From Escherichia coli (GTDB lineage Bacteria > Pseudomonadota > Gammaproteobacteria > Enterobacterales > Enterobacteriaceae): a stretch of DNA of 64,000 nucleotides. The stretch lies in NCBI RefSeq assembly GCF_011045215.1, contig NZ_CP049201.1; one strand, 5' to 3'. Below are positions 18,648 to 40,373 of the stretch, piece after piece. The notes below the pieces were generated by a model that had not been told where the DNA came from, did no database searches, and was given only the letters and a program-made list of their open reading frames with translations. Position 1 is the first letter of the stretch, and each line of letters begins with the position of its first letter. The translations under genes and the position numbers were made by a program.

Positions 18648-18673
18648 TTATCTAAAACCTCGGTTTACAGGAA
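18648..18673. repeat. gix/hix-like recombination site (left end of invertible segment)
   Basis: Reverse complement reads TTCCTGTAAACCGAGGTTTTAGATAA, close to the remembered Gin gix consensus; inverted copy at 21716..21741. Confidence 0.8.
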
Positions 18674-19618
18674 ACGGTAAATCAGGCTTCTGGCGCATTA
18701 CAGAAAAACCAGAACGGCGCAGATATTCCGGGAAAAGATACCTTCACCAAAAATATTGGGGCCTGCCGCGCATATAGCGCATGGCTGGATATTGGTGGCG
18801 ATAGTCAGGTCTGGACAACCGCGCAATTTATTTCGTGGCTGGAGAGTCAGGGAGCATTTAACCATCCTTACTGGATGTGCAAAGGCTCATGGGCTTATGC
18901 AAATAATAAGGTCATTACAGATACAGGTTGCGGAAATATTTGTCTTGCAGGTGCTGTGGTGGAAGTTATTGGCACTCGCGGCGCAATGACCATACGCGTT
19001 ACCACGCCGAGCACGTCCAGCGGTGGAGGAATTACTAACGCTCAATTCACTTATATTAATCATGGTGATGCTTACGCTCCTGGCTGGCGACGAGACTACA
19101 ACACGAAAAATCAACAACCTGCATTTGCTTTAGGGCAAACAGGAAGCACTGTCGGAAATGATAAAGCTGTTGGCTGGAACTGGAATAGCGGGGTCTATAA
19201 CGCAAATATTGGTGGCGCATCGACATTAATCCTCCACTTCAATATGAATACGGGGAGCTGCCCTGCTGCACAGTTCCGCGTGAATTACAGAAATGGCGGA
19301 ATCTTTTATCGTTCAGCGCGTGATGGTTATGGCTTTGAAGCTGACTGGTCAGAGTTTTACACCACAACCCGCAAACCCTCTGCGGGAGATGTTGGTGCAT
19401 ATACGCAGGCAGAATGTAACTCAAGGTTTATTACAGGTATTCGCCTTGGCGGTCTGTCATCTGTTCAGACATGGAATGGTCCCGGCTGGTCTGACAGGTC
19501 AGGTTATGTCGTTACGGGTTCAGTTAACGGAAACCGTGATGAATTAATTGATACAACTCAGGCAAGGCCAATTCAGTATTGCATTAATGGGACGTGGTAT
19601 AACGCGGGGAGTATTTAA
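18674..19618 (+). CDS. alternative (currently silent) tail-fibre C-terminal exon
   Basis: Frame is open from the crossover site ([22 protein letters not shown]..) with no start codon of its own; would fuse in frame to the H constant region after inversion; listed ORF 18875..19618 is its downstream part. Confidence 0.75.
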
Positions 19619-19620
19619 CG

Positions 19621-20154
19621 ATGATGCACTTAAAAAACATTACTGCTGGCAACCCTAAAACAAAAGAGCAATACCAGCTAACGAAACAATTTAACATCAA
19701 ATGGCTTTATTCAGAGGATGGAAAAAACTGGTATGAGGAACAAAAGAATTTCCAGCCAGACACTTTGAAAATGGTCTATGACCATAACGGCGTTATTATT
19801 TGTATTGAAAAGGATGTTTCAGCAATTAATCCGGAAGGCGCAAGCGTCGTTGAATTACCTGATATTACAGCAAATCGCCGTGCTGACATTTCGGGTAAAT
19901 GGATGTTCAAAGATGGCGTAGTGGTAAAGCGAACTTATACCGAGGAAGAGCAGAGGCAGCAGGCGGAAAATGAAAAGCAAAGCCTGCTACAGCTCGTCAG
20001 GGATAAAACCCAGCTATGGGACTCACAGCTACGGCTGGGCATCATTTCCGACGAGAATAAACAAAAATTAACCGAGTGGATGCTCTATGCGCAGAAAGTC
20101 GAATCCACAGACACCTCCAGCCTGCCAGTAACGTTTCCAGGACAACCAGAATGA
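19621..20154 (+). CDS. tail fibre assembly protein, alternative copy (G'/U'-type)
   Basis: 177 aa, [19 protein letters not shown]..; paralogue of the 20183..20710 product with a diverged C-terminus. Confidence 0.85.
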
Positions 20155-20157
20155 GAC

Positions 20158-20182
20158 AAGGCCCGCTATCGGGCCTTAATTT
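20158..20182. terminator. hairpin terminator between the two convergent tail-fibre assembly genes
   Basis: aaggcccgctatcgggcctt followed by aatttttatt. Confidence 0.5.
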
Positions 20183-20710
20183 TTATTCAGGCTTTTGTGG
20201 CCATTCAGGATTTGCCGTATCCACACGGCTGACCAGAACACTGTAGCGTTCCCATGACTCCAGTCGTGTGCGTTCCTCATCCGTCGCCATATTCAGCCTG
20301 ACAGCGCGTTCCAGTGGCTGAATAACGCTTTCAGCTTCGGAAAGTAACGCAGCCTTTTGTGATTCGGCCTGTTGTTGTTGCTCGTCTGCCGTATAAATCC
20401 GTTTAACTACAGCTCCATCCTTAAACATCCACTTTCCTGAACCATCAGCGCGGCGGTTGGCTGTAATATCGGGAACCTCAACGACGCTAAAACCTTCAGG
20501 GTTAAGCGTGGAGGCATCTTTAGTAATGGCGACAATAATATTATTTGCATCGTAAACAATCTTTATTGTGTCTGGCTGAAAGTTTTTCACTTCCTCATAC
20601 CAGTTTTTTCCGTCCTCAGAGTAAAGCCAGATAACTCCGTGTTTCTTTGTTAACTCATACTGTTCCAGTGTTTTAGCGTTACCCGCTTTTATGTTCTTTA
20701 AGTGCATCAT
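20183..20710 (-). CDS. G: tail fibre assembly protein (gpG-type), expressed orientation
   Basis: 175 aa immediately downstream of H on the same strand. Confidence 0.85.
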
Positions 20711-20711
20711 A

Positions 20712-22874
20712 TTAAACGCTCGCTACATTATACCAGGTGCCATTTATATACTTTTGAACGGGTCTGTAATAAACGCCCGCTATATTATCGGCAGAGTTGG
20801 AGCCTGTATCCTGAACATTAATACCAGACAATACATGACCTGACGGGCACTGGAAATTCCATGTTTGCCAGTTGTTCACTCCATAATATTGCTGTGAACC
20901 AAGTCGAACATCTTTCACATATCTGGAATCAAAATTGCCATAATTGCCGGGAATAACTTGCGCACCGCAAAGCCAGTTCCCGTTATTATCCATGTACGCC
21001 TGACCATCGGTGCCATTGGCTGTCCTTGAGTTATTAATCATGTAGATGCCAAATTGCTTATTTCCCAGACCGCCAATCATAAATTTTCGGTCGGCATGGT
21101 CCTGACGGAGCAAGGCCTGGGCGCTATCAGTGTTAACTATATTTTTCCCAAAGATAGCGTTGTTATCGCGCATCTGAATCCACATACCATTACCGCTGTT
21201 AATAGCAAAACGGTCTGAAAGTGTTTCTCCTGAAACATTAAGGCCACGCCCCATCGAAACAGCGCCAGTAGCGTTATTAATCCATAATGGCCTTAATCCG
21301 TTATAAGTCCCCATGTTGTCACCGGAGTTTGTCAACATGAAGTATGTATTTGAACCATCATTACGAATAAAGAATCCGTAACTACCATAAGCAATACGTA
21401 GGCCGTTTGCTGATTTTGATATGACTTCGCCATTTACAATGGCATTGACAAGAACATACAAAGCATCCCATTTAAGATTCATCAGGTCTTTTGTTGTGGT
21501 GCCTTGTTTGCTTCTCCATTTGAAATATTCATTGCCGTTGTCGCCTGTTTCAAACCACATGTATGAATCAGTATCGCTGTCGGCATCATTTTTAAATCCA
21601 ATCTTTGCCCAGTCAGTATTTCGAATCCAGGCAAGGATTGAGTCGTTTTCAAAAGTAAGTCCACCGGACAAGGTATCGCCTGTCTTTTGAACGGCGTTAC
21701 CAGCCTTGTTTACCGTTTCCTGTAAACCGAGGTATTCGATAACGGCGGCAACGGTCGATTTCGCAAGAATATCCCGCCCAACTTTTGTCAGGGTTGCCAA
21801 GCTGGCAACATCATTCCCCGTAAAATACGGAAACCTGTCTGCCGCAGTAGCAAGCCCGGCCAGCGCCGTCAGGGTGGCATCTTTCGGTTGCTTACCCGCA
21901 AGCGCGTTAGTCATGGTGGTCGCAAAATTCGGGTCGTTGCCCAACGCCGCAGCCAGCTCGTTCAGCGTATTCAGTGCGTCAGGCGACGAGTCCACGAGGG
22001 CAGCGATCGCAGCCATAACATAAGCCGTGCTTGCGATCTGAGTATTGTTAGTACCTTTTGGCGCAGTTGGTGTTGTTGGTGTTCCGGTCAGTGCCGGGCT
22101 GTTTAATGGGGCTTTCTTGTTCGTTTCATCCATTACCGCCTTAACCGCTTTTGGTGTCGCTGCCAGCGTTTCAGACGTGCTGTTGGTTGCACTACTAAGC
22201 TGGACAAGGCCTTTTCGCGTTGTAGTGGCGTCCTGAGCGGTATATTTTCCGTTAGCCAGGTCATACGCGGCCTTTACTGCTTTCGGCGTTGCAGCCTGCG
22301 TTTCAGAATCGTTGTTAGTGGCGCTACTGAGTTGAACAAAGCCTTTTGCGGTCAGCGAGGCATCCGGGTGACGTCGTGACTGTTCATGCTCTTTCAGTTT
22401 GTCATTCACGTAATCCACTGTGGCCATAACCATGGTGTTATCCACGGTAAGCGCCACGGTGGCAGTGCTGGATACGGTCAGAATGGTGCGAAATGTTTGT
22501 GCACGTCCGGACCCTTCGGCAACGGCTGGCTTGTAACTTTCGGCAGTATTGCCCACCGCGATCAAATCGCCGTGCTCATCAAACACACCAATTTCCCGGA
22601 TCCAGAATCCGCCCGTTTCAGGAGGAATAACCAGCTCTGCAATAATGCGGTTCTGATGTGTTGCGTCCAGGATGATGCGATTAACAGTATGTCGCCACAC
22701 CTCATGCACCAGACGGGTCTGCTTACTGTCTGGTGTGGGCAATGTACCGCCACCGTCGCCCACGGCCATATGAGTCAGGCGGACAGGCTTACCATCTGGC
22801 GCGGCTGCCTGAGCTAATTTTTTGGCACCCGTATCGGTGATAACGGTTTTAAATTTTCGTGTTGTGGTACTCAT
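20712..22874 (-). CDS. H: tail fibre protein H (constant N-terminus 22874..21742, variable C-terminus 21715..20712)
   Basis: 720 aa; N-terminus [34 protein letters not shown] resembles P2 gpH; a gix-like site lies in frame inside the gene. Confidence 0.9.
21716..21741. repeat. gix/hix-like recombination site (right end, inside H)
   Basis: TTCCTGTAAACCGAGGTATTCGATAA; inverted repeat of 18648..18673, differing only near the centre. Confidence 0.8.
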
Positions 22875-33037: not shown

Positions 33038-34083
33038 TGAGCAGAAAAAATAAAAAAGTGCGCATGAGTTCACGCATTGATCTCGCTGATGCGCTCAGGA
33101 AAGAATCATCGCTCAGTGCATTCACATTTGATGGTCCTTATCGCCTGACCGGGCATGACCTGCTGGACAATATGTACTGTGCTGATAACGGGCGGTGGTA
33201 TGAAACCCCGGTGGACTGGTACGGTCTGGCAAGAGCTGCCCGGCAAACGTCCTGGCATCAGTCTGCGCTTTACTTTAAGCGCAATGTATTACTCGGTTGC
33301 TACATCCCGCACCCGCTGCTTTCCCGGCAGGATTTCTCGGCGCTGGCGCTGGACTGGTTTGTGTTCGGTAACGCATTCCTTGAGCTTCGGAGCAATATGC
33401 TCGGCGAACCACTTAAATTACGGCACGCACTGGCGAAATACATGCGACGCGGAAGCGATCTTGAATCATGGTGGTATGTGCAGGATGGCAAGGACGCGTT
33501 TCAGTTTCGCCCTGGCAAAGTGTGCCACCTGATGAATCCGGACATTAACCAGGAAATTTACGGCATGCCGGAATATCTTGGAGCATTACTCTCGGCCAGC
33601 CTGTCTCATTCGGCGGACATGTTCAGAAAACTGTATTACGACAACGGATCCCACGCCGGGTGCATCATCTACATCGGTGCAGCGCAGGTAAACCGCGAAA
33701 GCATGGACTCCCTGAAAGAAACGTTACAGGGTGCGCGTGGTGGTGGTGCGTTTAAAAACGTGCTCATCCACGCGCCCAACGGGGGCAAAGAGGGGGTGCA
33801 AATTTTGCCGTTCCAGCAGATCACCGCAAAGGATGAGTTCATGAATGTTAAGGCGGCATCCCGTGATGATGTGCTGGCTGCGCACCGCGTTCCGCCGCAA
33901 CTGATGGGGGCGATGCCGGGCGAAAAAAGTGCGTTTGGTGATGTGGAGAAGGCCGCGCGGGTTTACGCAATTAACGAGCTGATGCCCGTCATGGAGGCTA
34001 TGAAGCACATCAATGACTGGCTTGGCGAAGAGGTGATCCGCTTTAACCCTTACGCACTGCTGGACACCCAGCCCACATCCTGA
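33037..34083 (+). CDS. Q: portal vertex protein Q
   Basis: 348 aa; translationally coupled to P; P2 gpQ-like. Confidence 0.92.
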   Translation: MSRKNKKVRMSSRIDLADALRKESSLSAFTFDGPYRLTGHDLLDNMYCADNGRWYETPVDWYGLARAARQTSWHQSALYFKRNVLLGCYIPHPLLSRQDFSALALDWFVFGNAFLELRSNMLGEPLKLRHALAKYMRRGSDLESWWYVQDGKDAFQFRPGKVCHLMNPDINQEIYGMPEYLGALLSASLSHSADMFRKLYYDNGSHAGCIIYIGAAQVNRESMDSLKETLQGARGGGAFKNVLIHAPNGGKEGVQILPFQQITAKDEFMNVKAASRDDVLAAHRVPPQLMGAMPGEKSAFGDVEKAARVYAINELMPVMEAMKHINDWLGEEVIRFNPYALLDTQPTS

Positions 34084-34420
34084 CGCGCTTCGCTTGTCTG
34101 CTGCTTCGCCGGGGCATAAAAAATTTATGCCCCGACTCTCCAGCTCTTGTATCAATCAGATAATTTCACGACGCTTTCCTGCTTATTGCCATCATCGACA
34201 GTCAGACTCTTACGCAATCCCACCGCGTTGACTGCATGTTCTCGCCGTCTCAGTGCGATTTTGACGGCCTTACCTTTCACCCCATCAAATCAAAAGCCCT
34301 CACGTCTTTTTCACGCTCAGCGTGAGAAATACAGCCATTCTGTTGTGTCGCTGCGACATCGTTCAGGGGATGCTATTTACCCCCTGAAACGCGGGCTGTT
34401 CCCCCGTCACCTGCGCGCAG

Positions 34421-34534
34421 AAAAAACGCGTTTTTTTGTGCACGCACGGTTCCCTGACGGATCCAGCCGCCACGCGGGTCGGAAGGGCAAAAAGTCGTTC
34501 AAAAAAATTGTGCAAATTTGTGCACTTTTGTGCA
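34421..34534. repeat. palindrome AAAAAACGCGTTTTTT plus four TTGTGCA repeats
   Basis: tttgtgcac (34435), attgtgcaa (34508), tttgtgcac (34517), tttgtgcag (34526), in the non-coding stretch downstream of Q. Confidence 0.4.
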
Positions 34535-34634
34535 GGTAAGCATGCCCATATATTTGACCGTAGCTTGCCTTTGATGTAGTTTATGCGTCACAAAAACCAC
34601 AAAACGTGGTTATGATTTCTATGAGGGGGTTGAT

Positions 34635-34670
34635 ATGAAAAAAATGTATGATGAATTTGATGGTTTCTAA
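34635..34670 (+). other. candidate 11-codon uORF (MKKMYDEFDGF)
   Basis: GAGGGGG 5 nt upstream of the ATG; stop lies 20 nt before a hairpin and T-tract. Confidence 0.25.
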
Positions 34671-34688
34671 GCTACGTTGACCTCTAAT

Positions 34689-34722
34689 GAGGCGGGGATT
34701 TGCTCCCCGCCTTTTTTATGGA
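34689..34722 (+). terminator. hairpin plus T-tract; also contains a P2 cos-like GAGGCGGGGA motif
   Basis: ggcggggatttgctccccgcc followed by TTTTTTAT; GAGGCGGGGA partially matches the remembered P2 cohesive-end sequence. Confidence 0.45.
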
Positions 34723-34731
34723 TGAAATAGG

Positions 34732-35229
34732 ATGAACCCAATAACACTACAAATCATCAGCAATGCTATTGTTCTGCTTGGCGTTTTGGTTGCCATTGGA
34801 ACCATTATCTACAATGTGCGTACCGCAAAAAAAACTCAAACGGCCAACTTTCTTTTTGAGAGTCGGCAAGATATGCAATATATAGAGTCATTGCATACCC
34901 TGAAACAAGTGCATCGTTCAGGCAAATCATTTCGTTCTTATGTTTTTCCTTGTGATGGTTGTACAATAACAGATGAGGAAATGGCCGAGCGTCGAAAATT
35001 TCAATATATTTTAAATTTTTACGAGCGAGTTGCTGTAAGTATTCGTGAAGGTATTTATGATGAAAAAATGATAAAAAGAACATCTTACACAACAGTTGTA
35101 GAGACATATGATATTGCCGAGCCATTAATTAAAGCAATCAGAGAAAGCATTAATTCGGATACTACATATCAAGAATTCGAATGGTTAGTAAGAAGATGGA
35201 AAGCTAATCCTTTACGGAAAAACAAATAA
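34732..35229 (+). CDS. hypothetical protein with single N-terminal TM helix (accessory cassette gene 1)
   Basis: 165 aa; N-terminal hydrophobic helix then a charged soluble domain; no family recognised. Confidence 0.65.
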   Translation: MNPITLQIISNAIVLLGVLVAIGTIIYNVRTAKKTQTANFLFESRQDMQYIESLHTLKQVHRSGKSFRSYVFPCDGCTITDEEMAERRKFQYILNFYERVAVSIREGIYDEKMIKRTSYTTVVETYDIAEPLIKAIRESINSDTTYQEFEWLVRRWKANPLRKNK

Positions 35230-35268
35230 TGTTTTACCCTTTAATTTACAAGTAACACAGGGGGAAGT

Positions 35269-36111
35269 GTGACACAGAATCCGTTTTCATTTTATGACTT
35301 TTTGGGCTATCTAATTCCAGGTGGGTTATTCCTGTTTATCCTTTTTTTGTTTTCTATTGAAATTAACCCTGTTTATATAGAAGGTATTCTTAACCACATC
35401 CTGAAATATAAAGAAATAATAAGTGTATTTATATATGTGGTATTAATTGTTCTATCATATATTTCAGGTCACTTCATATCTATTCTATCATCCTGTTTAA
35501 TTGAAAAATACATGAACAGTAAACTTGGGTATCCTTCAATTTATCTGTTTTCTAAAAGAAGCTCCCTGAAAATAAAACGACATAATACTAAGTTCAGTAT
35601 AGTTCATTTTATCCGTGGAGTTTTTTTACTTCCTGTATCAGCTTTTGATAAAGCAGAACATCATAAAACCACTCTGCATTCTATACTTATTAAAGTCTTT
35701 TGGCCGCAAATACGAGATGGTTATATAAATGTTTTTTCTGTATCTACGCTATATCGACGTAAGGGCTTGAGGGGCGATCTTTTTCGCCTTGCTTATCATT
35801 ATGTGTATGAACATTCTAAAAATCATCAGGTGAAAATGCAAAACTATGTTGCTTTGTATGGTTTTTGTAGAAACATTACATTTGTTTTTCTCGCTTCAGT
35901 CTGGTTGCTTATATGCCTGTTCCCTCTATCCTTTTTAATAGATATAAATATCAGGTTGTTACCTTTTTGTTTTCTTCTCTTGTTTTGTATTGCTGCATCC
36001 CGAGTATTTTATTATGGTTTTGTTAAGTATTATCGCCGCTATTCTCTTGAGGTTTTAATGGCATTTGCGGTACTTCAGCACGATAAAAAAACTTCGGCAA
36101 TTCCATCATGA
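35269..36111 (+). CDS. hypothetical polytopic membrane protein (accessory cassette gene 2)
   Basis: 280 aa, GTG start preceded by AGGGGGAAG; about 5-6 hydrophobic segments; visibly AT-rich; no family recognised. Confidence 0.65.
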   Translation: MTQNPFSFYDFLGYLIPGGLFLFILFLFSIEINPVYIEGILNHILKYKEIISVFIYVVLIVLSYISGHFISILSSCLIEKYMNSKLGYPSIYLFSKRSSLKIKRHNTKFSIVHFIRGVFLLPVSAFDKAEHHKTTLHSILIKVFWPQIRDGYINVFSVSTLYRRKGLRGDLFRLAYHYVYEHSKNHQVKMQNYVALYGFCRNITFVFLASVWLLICLFPLSFLIDINIRLLPFCFLLLFCIAASRVFYYGFVKYYRRYSLEVLMAFAVLQHDKKTSAIPS

Positions 36112-36194
36112 TTTGAAACATTGGCACCCTGTTAGCAAGGGTGCCAGAATGATGTGTTGGTATGTATTTTATTAGTTCAAATACAATTGTCAGA

Positions 36195-36509
36195 TTATTC
36201 TGGGAATAAGGTCTGAATATTCTTTTTTATTTTATAAAAATTGCATTCAACTCCGCTAGGCTGATTAGCCTGGTATGTTTCCTTGATGCTAACGGTATTG
36301 AAGGGGAGGTTGTCCTCTGGCCATTCGGCCATCCAGTAGGCAAATGCTGGGTTGCGCTTTATGAGTGCTAGCCCAGCCAGAAAGGCCGCGCGTTGCGCGC
36401 GGCTGCGTTCGGAGGCTGGCAGGCTATCGAGGTAATTGCACGCCTCCTGTTCACTCTTGACGGCGGCGGGCTTCAGATAGAAACTTATCCGTCTGGTTGG
36501 TGTCGTCAT
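36195..36509 (-). CDS. ParR-like partition adaptor / DNA-binding protein
   Basis: 104 aa; N-terminus (RRISFYLKP..CNYLDSLPASERSRAQRAAFLAGLALIKRNP) resembles plasmid R1 ParR as recalled; directly downstream of the ParM-like gene. Confidence 0.65.
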   Translation of the reverse strand: MTTPTRRISFYLKPAAVKSEQEACNYLDSLPASERSRAQRAAFLAGLALIKRNPAFAYWMAEWPEDNLPFNTVSIKETYQANQPSGVECNFYKIKKNIQTLFPE

Positions 36510-36513
36510 TGGT

Positions 36514-37473
36514 TTACTCCTTGTTCATTGCGTACAGTCCATTAACCAGAGCAAACTGTGGCACCCCGTCCGCGATGAAAGTCGCATTAACTCCGCAGGC
36601 TTCGCGGATAGCGGGTGCCACAATCTCCGCCCCGCCACCGACAACCATCACCCGCCCGTAACCCGAAAAAACCGCCAGCGCGCGGATCACGCGTTGTTTC
36701 AGTGTTTCTTCCTTTTCACGAATAACCGCCATCAGGCTGGCGTAATGCGCGTCATTGTGGATGTGCTGGCGCAGCCAGGCTTCATCATGGCGATGTTCGA
36801 TAATGGTATTGGCGATGTGGTGACTGGTGCGCATACCGTTAGTGGCCATCACCGACAGTACGGCATCGGCCATCAGAGAAACGCCTACGTGTGGATCGCA
36901 AAACACCTGGCTGATACCTGCCAGTTGCCCCTGGACCTTTGCCACATCCAGCGTGGTTCCGCCCAAATCCACAATCAGCAGGGATTCAAACGGACTCATG
37001 TCAGCCAGTGCCTTAAAGCCAGCCGGAATGGATTCAGGCATAACCCGTACGTTACGGATAGTGAATGCTTCGCCGTTCTGGTACTCCACCGGGCGCATGA
37101 CGTTCGCTTTTTTGCGGTTGATGTTGGCCATGTCCGGCTGTGCGTTTGTGTCGAAATATTCGCTCAGTGGCAGGGTGACAACCACATCCACTTCCTGTGG
37201 TGTGATGCCTGATTTGACCAGCGCGTGATGAATGGCAATGACATTCACATCGCTGTACTGGTATTGCGTGTCGGTCGTCTGGACAAAGCGATCGCTGACC
37301 GGATCAAAACCATAGCGCACGCCATCAACCATGTAGTTCGCGGGCTGCGTGCCACCGAACGGCGCAGACCATTCCGACTTGAAGCTGTTCGGGCTGATGG
37401 CGTTGCGGCGTTCGCCGTTCTCAGTCCATGCCAGCTTGATGTTGGTGGAGCCGTCATCGATACAAATTTTCAT
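36514..37473 (-). CDS. ParM/StbA-like actin-type segregation ATPase
   Basis: 319 aa; MKICIDDGSTNIKLAW..ISPNSF..YQYSDVNVIAIHHAL..VMPESIPAG..LIVDLGGTTLD..VMVVGGGAE resembles R1 ParM/StbA along its length. Confidence 0.85.
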   Translation of the reverse strand: MKICIDDGSTNIKLAWTENGERRNAISPNSFKSEWSAPFGGTQPANYMVDGVRYGFDPVSDRFVQTTDTQYQYSDVNVIAIHHALVKSGITPQEVDVVVTLPLSEYFDTNAQPDMANINRKKANVMRPVEYQNGEAFTIRNVRVMPESIPAGFKALADMSPFESLLIVDLGGTTLDVAKVQGQLAGISQVFCDPHVGVSLMADAVLSVMATNGMRTSHHIANTIIEHRHDEAWLRQHIHNDAHYASLMAVIREKEETLKQRVIRALAVFSGYGRVMVVGGGAEIVAPAIREACGVNATFIADGVPQFALVNGLYAMNKE

Positions 37474-37508
37474 GTCGCTTTTCCTTATGTTGATTAATTA
37501 ATCGTTTG

Positions 37509-37615
37509 CGGGATTCTGAAATCCCGTTTTTGCCTGTTTTATGCGCGCTTCATATATCGCGGCGCGTTTTTTGCTCATTTACGGGATTTGTGAATCCCGT
37601 TTCTGTCTGTTTTTT
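37509..37615. repeat. two copies of a ~33-bp direct repeat, each with an 18-bp hairpin palindrome
   Basis: cgggattctgaaatcccg (37509..37526) and cgggatttgtgaatcccg (37582..37599), each followed by a T-rich tail; the second lies within the last codons of A. Confidence 0.5.
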
Positions 37616-40373
37616 TGTTTCCACTGGTCAGGCTACCCTGCAGCAGGTCTGCTTTGCGGCGGGCGCGTTCAGTGGTTTCACTGATTCTCTGTGCGTGCTC
37701 TGCGTCACAAATGGCGCGCAGCATGTCAGAAAGCACGGTAACGGGTGTTTTCATGGTGTTCTGGACCTGCTGAAGTGTGGATGCCAGGCGTGCGGCGGCT
37801 TCGGGGTCTGATGCCCCGAGCTGTGCCAGATAGCTGGCGACCGGGTTATGGCGGATCTCCGTGCTGCTTACGCCGTGATTACGGCTCAGGCGCTGCCAGA
37901 GCTGCGTGATTCGGCTGTCCGGGCGGGTATCCGGTTTACGTACAATTTCAAATCCCTGCGGTGAAATGATGCTGCCGTCAACGTACAGACTGCCGCCCCG
38001 TAACAGGTGCTGCATCTGCTGTTCACCGATATGCAGGCCGAGAGATTCAGCAGACTCCCGCCATTCTTTAGCGAGTAACTCGTGGTTATCAGGCAAAGGC
38101 CGCGGCTGTTTGCGGCTCTGTGTCCAGCTCTGCATTTCATCGCTGCTGTTTTTTGCCTGTTTGTCACGAAGCGAACGCATCAGCGCCCGGCGTTCGTGCC
38201 GTTTCAGTGAGCGCATCCATTCATTCACTTCAACGCCGTCAGGAAGCTGCGGCCACGGTGCTGGCCGTTCTTCCGACTGTTCTGTCCCGCTGTTGCCTGT
38301 TTCCTGTACACGGGGACAGTTATTGCCACGAGTCCAAGGGGCGGCAGGGCCGCCCTGAAGGTCAAAACCATTTTCGCGGGCGCTGTCTTCCGCTTCCGGT
38401 TTACGTCTTACCAGCTTCCAGTTATCCGGATGCGTGCACACACGGGAGGATTCCCCGATGAGTGGTGACCAGATCCCGTAAATCTGTACGCTCTGTTCGC
38501 CGTAATCGTTCAGCTCATCTGCGAGGTCGTAGGCGGTGCGAATCAGGTAGTCTTTACGTGGAACAAGTACGCCACCCTGTTTCTCAATGTAGGTGGCAAA
38601 ACATCCGGCATCAGCGGCAGCAAGAACCGCATCCATTGCGTCATCCTTCAGCCGTTGCGGGCCTTCCGGGTTGCGTGCCATCTGGCTGGCAAGGCGGCGG
38701 AGTTCACGCCACACCTGACGGGAGGGAATGCCAAAGAACTGGAACTGGCGGACCCGGTGAAGGCGCGCCCAGCCGATGGCGCGCTCCACGCTCTCGGCCA
38801 TTGATTTACCTGTTTCGTGGTCAACGCGTGGCTTGCCCGTTTTCGGGTCGATGCCATCCACGGCACGGCTGTCCAGGTTTTTCCCAATGTAGGTGGCGAT
38901 GTAGCTGGTCGGTGTGCCTTTTGAGCCGTCGACGTACTCCGCCTTAAAGCGTGGGGTAATATCATCACCCAGCTCGTGACGATCTTCCTGAATGGCAATA
39001 TCGCGGGTGTGGGACACAATGGTGTCGATTTCTTCCGGATGAGCAAAGACCATCATATGCCAGTGCACGGTGCCGTCATGGTGAGGCTCCACCGTGCGGA
39101 TGCCATACCAGCGCAGGCCGTCGCGGTTCAGTTTCTTGCGGACCGCCGCAAAAAACGTGTTAACCAGGTAATCGCTGGAGTCGCGCATGGTGGCCCCGTT
39201 CCATTTGGGATTCGGATGACCGTTCTCCGTTGTTGCGTGGTATTTTGACGGGCAGGTGACAGTCAGAAACACCGCTCTGTCGCCACGGGCTTCGGCCAGA
39301 AGTTCCAGCCCCTTCATGGTGGCCATCATTTCTGCCTTACGGTGAACCGGGTTACTTACTCCCGCGTAATACACTGTCTCGAGATCAATCGTGAACCCGT
39401 CTTCATTTTCCAGCATGAAACTTTTCAGGAAATCGCGTGTTTTCTCGCGCTGTGCGCGAAACTCGCTTAACGCGTCCTGGCTCAGATATGGTGATGTTTT
39501 TCTGGAAACCAGACAGGCGGCGCGGAGTTGTTCTTCTCTCCACTCGCAACGTAACAGCCACAGTTTGCGTTTCCACCATTCCGCACAGGTCAGGCGAAGG
39601 ATTGCGCCCGGCAGCAGCTCCGTGTCCGGTTCGTTCCTCCGGTCTTTGTCTGTCGTCAGTGCGTCATAATGTGGAGGCATGGCGTGCAGGTGTAACGCCA
39701 TGCGGGCCAGCATCTGATACGCCTTCAGCGTTACATCCATGGTCAGTTCACCATCAGTCGCGCCAAAGCCATCGCAGAGTTTTTCGAAGGTGCTGCTGAA
39801 CATCGCCGCCGTCATGGTGGCCAGCGTCTGTATCTGGTGTTTGTTGAGCTGCGGCAGGTAAAGCAAATCGTCCAGGCGTTCGCGTCCGGCAAGGGAGCGA
39901 TAACCCGGTGTCAGCCAGCGTCCGTCAGTGCGATCCAGACGTTCGAATATTTTGCGCAGGGTTCCGCGTGCATAGCGTTCCGCCTGCCAGCTCTTTTTGC
40001 CTTTCCTGCGATCGGCTTCCTGTTTTTTGCGCAGGAAGGAGAGGTGGCGAATAAGCGGATCGCGCAGATAGGACGGCAGCAGGCGCAGCGAGGCCATGGC
40101 TTCATCCACCGCGCCGCGTGCCTGTTTTCTGGCGTCTCCTGCCAGTGTGATGGTTTTGTCCTGTTTTTCCTGTGCGTCCAGGCTTTTATTAATCAGGTTG
40201 CCCAGCGGCGTGGCGGAGAACGCCGCATCAGCCATTTCCTGGCGGCGCTCGTTCTCTGCCCGGTAGGCATCCAGCCAGGAGGAAAGCGCGGATTCAGGAG
40301 CGGGGATCCCCGTTCCTTCACGCCCCACTGCGTGGCGCGGTTGTTGCCAGTCCCTGATGTACTCTGCCGTCAT
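37575..40373 (-). CDS. A: replication initiation endonuclease A (rolling-circle initiator)
   Basis: 932 aa; ..VHWHMMVF.. and ..YIATYIGKN.. (HUH and catalytic-Tyr contexts) as in P2 gpA. Confidence 0.88.
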   Translation of the reverse strand: MTAEYIRDWQQPRHAVGREGTGIPAPESALSSWLDAYRAENERRQEMADAAFSATPLGNLINKSLDAQEKQDKTITLAGDARKQARGAVDEAMASLRLLPSYLRDPLIRHLSFLRKKQEADRRKGKKSWQAERYARGTLRKIFERLDRTDGRWLTPGYRSLAGRERLDDLLYLPQLNKHQIQTLATMTAAMFSSTFEKLCDGFGATDGELTMDVTLKAYQMLARMALHLHAMPPHYDALTTDKDRRNEPDTELLPGAILRLTCAEWWKRKLWLLRCEWREEQLRAACLVSRKTSPYLSQDALSEFRAQREKTRDFLKSFMLENEDGFTIDLETVYYAGVSNPVHRKAEMMATMKGLELLAEARGDRAVFLTVTCPSKYHATTENGHPNPKWNGATMRDSSDYLVNTFFAAVRKKLNRDGLRWYGIRTVEPHHDGTVHWHMMVFAHPEEIDTIVSHTRDIAIQEDRHELGDDITPRFKAEYVDGSKGTPTSYIATYIGKNLDSRAVDGIDPKTGKPRVDHETGKSMAESVERAIGWARLHRVRQFQFFGIPSRQVWRELRRLASQMARNPEGPQRLKDDAMDAVLAAADAGCFATYIEKQGGVLVPRKDYLIRTAYDLADELNDYGEQSVQIYGIWSPLIGESSRVCTHPDNWKLVRRKPEAEDSARENGFDLQGGPAAPWTRGNNCPRVQETGNSGTEQSEERPAPWPQLPDGVEVNEWMRSLKRHERRALMRSLRDKQAKNSSDEMQSWTQSRKQPRPLPDNHELLAKEWRESAESLGLHIGEQQMQHLLRGGSLYVDGSIISPQGFEIVRKPDTRPDSRITQLWQRLSRNHGVSSTEIRHNPVASYLAQLGASDPEAAARLASTLQQVQNTMKTPVTVLSDMLRAICDAEHAQRISETTERARRKADLLQGSLTSGNKKTDRNGIHKSRK

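Follow-up and report, generated by a model that had tools for sequence, protein, structure and literature searches.

A 64,000-nt stretch of the Escherichia coli contig NZ_CP049201.1 (RefSeq assembly GCF_011045215.1), called the window in what follows, contains an integrated P2-like prophage whose replication initiator gene, A (product gpA), is followed on the same strand by two partition genes, parM and parR. Their products are, on sequence evidence, a full-length ParM with all ATPase motifs and a ParR, and the comparisons below mark the pair as a stable, lineage-specific core module linked to gpA in P88-type phages rather than transient cargo. Upstream of parM lie two GGG-N10-CCC dyads, one of them inside gene A, which are likely a parC-like centromere to which ParR is predicted to bind. 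We consider it somewhat probable that these parts make up an intact ParMRC system of the R1/pB171 type acting on phage circles that replicate after infection or excision.

The genes in question are as follows.

36514..37473, minus strand: parM, actin-like segregation ATPase, 319 aa (R1 ParM in PDB, Pfam)
36195..36509, minus strand: parR, putative ribbon-helix-helix (RHH) centromere-binding adaptor, 104 aa (PF10784, 2jd3 profile)
37482..37486, minus strand: Shine-Dalgarno sequence of parM, AAGGA (read from sequence)
37575..40373, minus strand: gene A, replication initiator of the P2 gpA family, 932 aa (PHROG 91)

A first-pass annotation had read the two open reading frames (ORFs) as an actin-like ParM and an RHH-type ParR; both were found at these minus-strand coordinates, and profile searches upheld both assignments. 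The 319-aa protein matches R1 ParM (PDB 1mwk) over residues 2-316 with E=1.9e-92, and Pfam recognizes in it StbA_N (PF06406, 1.9e-82) and the ParM C-terminal domain (PF21523, 9.8e-69). The motifs DDGST (phosphate-1), PESIPAG (catalytic), DLGGTTLD (phosphate-2) and GGGA (adenosine) do not vary among the phage and plasmid homologues aligned. Residues 6-75 of the 104-aa protein are covered by the Pfam family Plasmid_stab_B (PF10784, StbB/ParR) at 9.4e-29. Its single sequence reaches pB171 ParR (PDB 2jd3) at E=0.012, and a family profile of eight phage and plasmid ParRs does so at E=3.2e-14. PHROGs names both products ‘partition protein’; NCBIfam gives ParM matches below threshold only and none for ParR. 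The parM stop codon is separated by 4 nt from the parR start, and the parR Shine-Dalgarno sequence (AAGGAG) lies within the 3′ end of parM.

The 33 distinct ParR sequences from E. coli are almost invariant over their first 18 residues (MTTPTRRISFYLKPAAVK), which include the predicted beta-strand; the near-invariant N-terminus reads MTTPTRRISFYLKP. The helices fall into two main types about 53% identical overall, residues ~60-95 form a hypervariable linker, and the extreme C-terminus is conserved again as [KG]-N-I-[QR]-x-x-F-P-[EKD]. N97 and L101 are invariant, and the terminal motif [KR]-x-N-[IA]-x-x-L-F-P is found in phage and plasmid ParRs alike, the phage tail KKNIQTLFPE aligning with KKNAMKLIN of R1-type ParR. 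In published descriptions, the RHH domain of ParR leads into a conserved and unstructured C-terminal tail, which a hydrophobic pocket of ParM binds (review, PMC5016525). The phage protein carries what its sequence predicts to be such a ParM-binding tail.

In the cassette region the window matches E. coli KSC9 at 100% identity. The Prokaryotic Genome Annotation Pipeline (PGAP) marks in that record a P2-like prophage comprising integrase, C-like repressor, Cox, A, ParM, ParR, two cargo genes, portal, terminase and late genes. The element adjoins pdxB and has an integrase, in agreement with its first-pass description as an integrating P2-like prophage; it is not a low-copy autonomous plasmid. Its nearest named relatives are P88 (Xuanwuvirus, Peduoviridae) and Citrobacter PhiSM. 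Each is an active temperate phage: mitomycin C induces P88, and PhiSM lysogens are integrated at pdxB (PMC5285337, PMC6456863).

Of 5426 complete E. coli genomes, 1303 carry near-identical cassettes, 1442 copies in all, of which 1440 are chromosomal. In the phage collection, R1-type ParM was found only in P88-type phages and in the P1-like phage-plasmid D6 (48% identity). Plasmid ParMs are abundant but at most about 52-53% identical to the window ParM, and never lie beside gene A. Among 72,556 PLSDB records seven contain the cassette: five replicons of 0.2-1.4 Mb, one linear fragment and one phage-sized circle. Recent capture from a plasmid was considered and rejected, since plasmid ParMs stay at or below 52% and the near-identical plasmid matches are prophages within large replicons. 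NZ_CP049283 (26.7 kb, labelled ‘plasmid’) was likewise rejected as an episome, being a linear, IS1-riddled fragment.

These distributions bear on facultative plasmid lysogeny, suggested by Rousset et al. 2022, in which the phage would persist as a low-copy partitioned plasmid, for instance where attB is absent or integration has failed. In its favour, the cassette is a complete module of cis and trans partition functions, and NZ_CP148288.1 (pZ1323PEC0009-2), a circular record of 34,461 bp deposited as a ‘plasmid’, comprises an entire P88-like genome joined at attP, int adjoining ogr. A phage 99.9% identical to that circle is, however, chromosomal in Z1323HEC0067, a strain of the same naming series. 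The circle is also the only phage-sized one among the seven PLSDB records, and nearly all E. coli copies are chromosomal as just counted. Lysogens of P88 and PhiSM are ordinary, with integration at pdxB shown for PhiSM (PMC6456863), and integrase is present in all loci with sufficient flank. A stable episome would, moreover, require gpA expression under immunity. The hallmarks of a phage-plasmid are missing, as integrase and att are present and the copies nearly all chromosomal. An attP-spanning query against the complete E. coli genomes found no intact internal attP, a weak negative because circles starting at attP split the matches. Plasmid lysogeny is disfavoured as the main state; we hold it to be unlikely overall, and what remains of it is a rare or conditional state.

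Beyond E. coli, ParM homologues were found in P2-like prophages of Hafnia (62% identical), Plesiomonas (62%), Serratia (58%) and Enterobacter (54%), in the fixed order gpA, 0-2 small ORFs, parM, parR, variable genes, portal. In a local tblastn comparison of 45 loci, every ParM at least 54% identical to that of the window has gpA upstream and none at or below 53% does, and phage-context ParMs cluster separately from plasmid ParMs in a neighbour-joining tree. Across these phages gpA and portal are 29-55% identical. The Escherichia albertii NBRC 107761 locus (gpA 97%, ParM 99% and portal 30% identical to the window) reads as an early/replication module, parMR included, joined to another structural module. 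From the diverged gpA and portal and from this mosaic we infer that the cassette is old and moves with the replication module.

Three further sets of loci came up in these searches. A Dickeya parMR pair (48% ParM) is chromosomal, inside an integrated conjugative element (TraG, TraU, integrase), and a Mangrovibacter pair (50% ParM) lies, likewise on the chromosome, in a plasmid-like region that has integrated (Rep3, ParA/ParB). Metagenome-assembled genomes labelled Collinsella, Lachnospiraceae and Clostridiales also contain enterobacterial parM loci, one of them a 98% identical P88-type copy, most likely through binning contamination.

Within E. coli the ratio of nonsynonymous to synonymous polymorphism (pN/pS) of parM is 0.061 over 66 alleles; the gene has no internal stop in 69 of 69 loci and is 98-99% identical in 80 IMG/VR loci. 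A functionless relic of old plasmid-phage recombination, now decaying, might be read from the frameshifted gene A beside the cassette in the window and from one locus with a 73-bp repeat deletion, both taken up below. Such a relic would not be expected to show a pN/pS of 0.06 and an intact parM in every one of the 69 loci, to be retained across genera, or to be carried by the active phages P88 and PhiSM. Purifying selection this strong excludes it, and we give it next to no credence.

The cassette borders on the known P2 hotspot between gpA and portal (tin/old locus), where accessory and defence genes vary (PMC9122126), and the PhiSM authors list the partition gene as ‘fitness’ cargo (PMC6456863). 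It could on these grounds be accessory hotspot cargo itself, serving host benefit or the exclusion of competitors for instance through centromere incompatibility with plasmids or phages, or stabilization of other replicons in trans. The distal two-thirds of parR are indeed swapped along with downstream cargo: nucleotide identity between the window and P88 collapses past codon 18 (36195..36455), and ParR allele type tracks the type of cargo downstream. The break and the correlation together set the recombination boundary of the hotspot inside parR and indicate that cargo-swapping recombination often ends there, while appearing, from the alleles compared, always to spare the DNA-reading strand and the ParM-binding tail of ParR.

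The rest of the cassette behaves otherwise. The GC content of parM (54-57%) matches that of gene A and the phage core, unlike the true cargo downstream (29-35%), of which there are at least 16 unrelated types after parR among 47 loci. This GC difference and turnover place the real start of the hotspot of Rousset et al. after, or inside, parR. Turnover, atypical GC and likeness to defence systems, the marks of hotspot cargo, are thus absent from parMR and present in the genes after parR. PADLOC gives no match for the cassette, and its position and orientation are fixed across phages whose gpA and portal are as diverged as stated above. A conserved cis-acting dyad pair is kept on the phage, and cross-talk with R1-type plasmids is not expected because the ParR beta-strand and parC differ. 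Accessory cargo is accordingly an improbable description of parMR.

The hotspot of the window itself holds two AT-rich cargo genes (29-35% GC; 34732..36111, plus strand), convergent with parR. The first encodes a 165-aa DUF4760 protein (PHROG 2284) and the second a multi-pass membrane protein of 280 aa (PHROG 12528) that PADLOC matches weakly to Csx27 (6e-6). They may form an uncharacterized anti-phage pair.

The region upstream of parM, where the first-pass annotation proposed a parC-like centromere or operator, and the far end of the cassette hold these further features.

37575..37613, minus strand: repeat unit 1, candidate centromere, with dyad 1 GGGATT-CACA-AATCCC at 37582-37599 (repeat search)
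37541..37574, minus strand: spacer between the repeat units, A-rich and GC-palindromic, GCGCCGCGATATATGAAGCGCGC (sequence)
37502..37540, minus strand: repeat unit 2, candidate centromere, with dyad 2 GGGATT-TCAG-AATCCC at 37509-37526 (repeat search)
36123..36145, no strand assigned: GC-rich hairpin GGCACCCT-N7-AGGGTGCC, between parR and the convergent cargo genes (read from sequence)

The two repeats (37502-37540 and 37575-37613) are direct, 39 nt each, 79% identical and 73 bp apart; each has a palindrome with an 8-bp stem inside it, and dyad 2 begins 52 nt 5′ of the parM ATG. The pattern CGGGATT-N4-AATCCCG matches exactly only at the two repeat sites within the window. When up to two mismatches are allowed, 0.28 chance matches are expected, and no shuffle reached the observed count. 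No array of 10-11-bp iterons like that of R1-type plasmid parC was found in the region upstream of the cassette. A third, partial copy of an A/C-rich motif at 38285-38302, inside gene A, has no dyad and was judged a chance match.

Aligned with one another, the regions 5′ of parM in the window, P88, Hafnia and Plesiomonas share two GGGA...CCC elements, the short A-rich tracts after them, and TTAATCAA...AAGGA, with little else conserved. Measured from the parM ATG the dyads stand at -125/-52 in E. coli and at -128/-55 and -131/-59 in Hafnia and Plesiomonas. In each locus the conserved upstream pair is the sole GGG-N10-CCC pair with 70-75 bp spacing. The position and spacing (72-73 bp) of the pair are therefore kept in loci whose ParM is just 62% identical. 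The comparison covers three lineages, E. coli, Hafnia and Plesiomonas, because IMG/VR gave only 98-99% identical copies and the species-representative genomes gave few diverged loci of the phage clade.

The first-pass annotation had described repeats of ~33 bp, each with an 18-bp hairpin palindrome. The repeats are real, somewhat longer, and unique in pattern within the window; what is conserved in them is the dyad and not the hairpin. The parC-like site proposed there stays a candidate, strengthened by the comparison of lineages and refined, with the dyad as its unit and repeat 1 within gene A.

Were the palindromes nucleic-acid hairpins, acting as antisense terminators, mRNA stem-loops or single-strand replication signals, the true centromere would be elsewhere or absent. 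On the plus strand both palindromes do resemble terminators, with 8-bp stems followed by T-rich tails, and shuffled sequence folds far less well than the region does (z=-5.0). On either side, A/C-rich repeats of 17 nt resemble the A/C-rich iterons of R1-type parC. The pattern of variation tells against hairpins. Across 66 E. coli haplotypes the loop bases are free to vary and the central GG/CC is constant; stem changes are all one-sided, leaving a C.A mismatch in 25 of the 66, and none is compensatory. In Hafnia and Plesiomonas the inner palindrome is gone: the outer GGG/CCC and the spacing are kept, with 3-4-bp stems, 10-nt loops and no T-tails. One-sided stem changes together with an invariant GG/CC point to a double-stranded dyad read by protein rather than an RNA or DNA hairpin. 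No plus-strand gene reads into the region, and another hairpin already separates parR from the convergent cargo. An Rfam scan of 34000-38500 returned two chance-level matches, and the repeats fall under no known RNA family. We judge a hairpin role doubtful at best.

The clade of Serratia and Enterobacter differs at both ends of the presumed contact. Its ParR N-terminus has NRK in place of TRR, and upstream, instead of the dyad pair, it has a 14-20-bp inverted repeat with arms 26-28 bp apart. Such co-variation of ParR N-terminus and repeat type, here in two lineages only, would be the pattern expected of a centromere.

Gene A matches PHROG 91, ‘nicking at origin of replication’, at 5e-269, and is the immediate upstream neighbour of the cassette in the same orientation. 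A poly-A run at ~37614-37620 is A7 in the window and A6 in P88 and most of 75 related IMG/VR loci, with A5 in a few loci and A7 in one other. The extra A shifts the frame, so that gpA ends 8 residues early (932 aa versus 940 aa in P88) with a changed tail; PGAP labels the gene ‘replication endonuclease, frameshifted’. The A7 run may reflect true variation or a sequencing error in the homopolymer. In P88 and most relatives A continues through repeat 1 to a TGA in the spacer, at ~37549-37551. The first-pass statement that a repeat overlaps the A stop codon holds, accordingly, only for the frameshifted A of the window, while the A6 relatives stop in the spacer.

Between gene A and parM no sense-strand terminator was found, nor, by simple consensus scan, a sigma-70-like promoter, and gpA and parMR share orientation in every lineage compared. 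With the hairpin after parR, these observations point to parMR as the distal genes of an early transcript. The hairpin at 36123..36145 is likely where that transcript ends, although the terminator scan did not call it, a T-run being absent.

The closest known relative is ParMRC of plasmids R1/NR1 (parA/stb), the type II prototype. The phage cassette shares with it the order site, parM, parR; a ParM that aligns end to end at ~47-50% identity and keeps all the nucleotide-binding motifs; a ParR with an N-terminal domain of the RHH family and the C-terminal motif KKN-x-x-x-L; and an upstream site in two blocks (PMC5016525). It differs in residing on an integrating P2-like phage instead of a low-copy plasmid, and in its ParR, which has 104 aa against 116 aa in R1 and is ~30% identical. 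The sites differ as well: R1 parC consists of 2 x 5 direct 11-bp iterons and the phage site of two 39-bp units with GGG-N10-CCC dyads. Whereas R1-type parC overlaps an autoregulated promoter, the phage site has no recognizable promoter between its blocks, one of which lies within the upstream gene. To pB171 par1 (StbA/StbB) the likeness is in the fold family PF10784, 2jd3 being the sole solved structure matched by the phage ParR family; pB171 ParR has 130 aa and is plasmid-borne. D6 has an R1-type ParM/StbA (48% identity) too, but it is a 91-kb plasmid-prophage, where partition is expected, and its ParM falls below the 54% mark of the P2-context clade.

Two systems on integrating elements supply the precedent for segregation there. 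AlpC/AlpA/alpS of the Corynebacterium glutamicum prophage CGP3 pairs an actin-like filament protein with a DNA-binding adaptor on an integrated prophage; it is switched on early, has an adaptor that binds upstream of the operon encoding it, and is required for efficient replication of excised CGP3 (PMC4446434, PMC5539076). The likeness is functional and architectural only; AlpAC belongs to another actin-like family, has another adaptor, and comes from an unrelated prophage with a Gram-positive host. What P88-type phages carry is closely related to plasmid ParMR and not a distant Alp. SrpMRC of the SXT/R391 integrative and conjugative elements is also a type II-like partition system on a normally integrated element; it is expressed only with excision and replication functions and stabilizes the transient extrachromosomal form (PMC4489591). 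SrpM is, however, distant from R1 ParM, SrpR has no recognizable ParR homology, and the element is conjugative.

We picture the cassette at work as follows. The genes parM and parR would be the last two on the early transcript, which would also carry the gene for the rolling-circle initiator gpA, so that both proteins would be made while the phage genome replicates as a circle outside the chromosome, following infection or excision. ParR dimers would bind, through their N-terminal beta-ribbon, the two GGG-N10-CCC dyads that straddle the end of gene A 73 bp apart. The clustered C-terminal tails (...KKNIQTLFPE) would then catch the growing ends of ParM-ATP filaments, and bipolar filaments would drive sister phage circles apart. 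The likely benefit would be dispersal or positioning of replicating genomes, giving efficient replication and reaching both cell halves before integration or packaging; long-term plasmid lysogeny would not be the usual outcome. The first-pass annotation had offered episomal maintenance, segregation of replicating phage DNA, or co-option for something else. Segregation appears to fit best of the three, and the distribution disfavours episomal maintenance.

Several points weigh against this account. The lytic cycle of P2-like phages is short, and a direct need for active segregation is not obvious. Mean nucleotide diversity of the repeats (0.04-0.10) is not below that of parM third codon positions (0.051), constraint being confined to the core bases. 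The lack of a promoter before parM comes from the simple consensus scan alone. One IMG/VR locus has a clean 73-bp deletion, probably arisen by recombination between the repeats, which fuses the two units into one and removes the gene A stop. The candidate centromere has two large units only, where R1-type parC has about ten 11-bp iterons, and one iteron is bound per ParR dimer (review, PMC5016525). This difference may keep ParR and parC from forming a ring-like complex in the same manner. The searchable literature yielded no experiment or functional study on the cassette.

A bolder version, which we put forward tentatively, is that the phage requires a small ‘mitotic’ apparatus with a minimal two-dyad centromere in its extrachromosomal phase, for gpA-driven replication, lysogenization or packaging. 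If true, it would entail a two-dyad mode of ParR-DNA recognition and a coupling of replication to segregation unlike those of the iteron-array parC of plasmids. A sub-variant has the phage leading a dual lifestyle, integrated or ParMRC-partitioned as a plasmid depending on the host.

One other difference from the near-identical KSC9 prophage record lies away from the cassette. The 3,077 bp at 18657..21733 are exactly inverted in the window; they contain the tail-fibre C-terminus and tail-fibre assembly genes and lie beside a Gin/Cin-like ‘recombinase family protein’ gene. An exact inversion beside a recombinase gene makes this an invertible host-range segment in the opposite orientation.

The presence of the cassette on an integrating phage, which the first-pass annotation took to be unexpected, is already on record. 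RefSeq/PGAP names the products ParM and ‘plasmid partitioning/stability family protein’, and PHROGs names them too. Rousset et al. 2022 (Cell Host Microbe, PMC9122126) reported that roughly one in four E. coli P2-like phages has a ‘putative plasmid partitioning system’, a prevalence that agrees with our genome counts. Between gpA and gpQ their supplementary table gives ‘DUF4760 + StbA + Plasmid_stab_B + ...’, the same arrangement as in the window. AlpAC (PMC4446434) and SrpMRC (PMC4489591) are precedents on other integrating elements. The identification is thus a known and ordinary observation. Rousset et al. treated the cassette as one variable hotspot system and suggested plasmid maintenance in passing; here it behaves as a conserved gpA-linked module that is almost never on a separate replicon. 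What the present analysis adds is its standing as a core module tied to gpA, the strong selection on it, the likely dyad-pair centromere, and a distribution that speaks against its mainly serving plasmid maintenance.

About a quarter of complete E. coli genomes hold an R1-type segregation machine in an integrating phage, and what it is used for there has apparently not been asked. If it organizes phage DNA, the phage-cytoskeleton theme of AlpAC and PhuZ would extend to a small, tractable coliphage (P88, PhiSM) that employs the best-understood bacterial actin, with a naturally minimal centromere for dissecting how ParR recognizes DNA. If it is of no use to the phage, a partition system would be under strong selection for some other reason.

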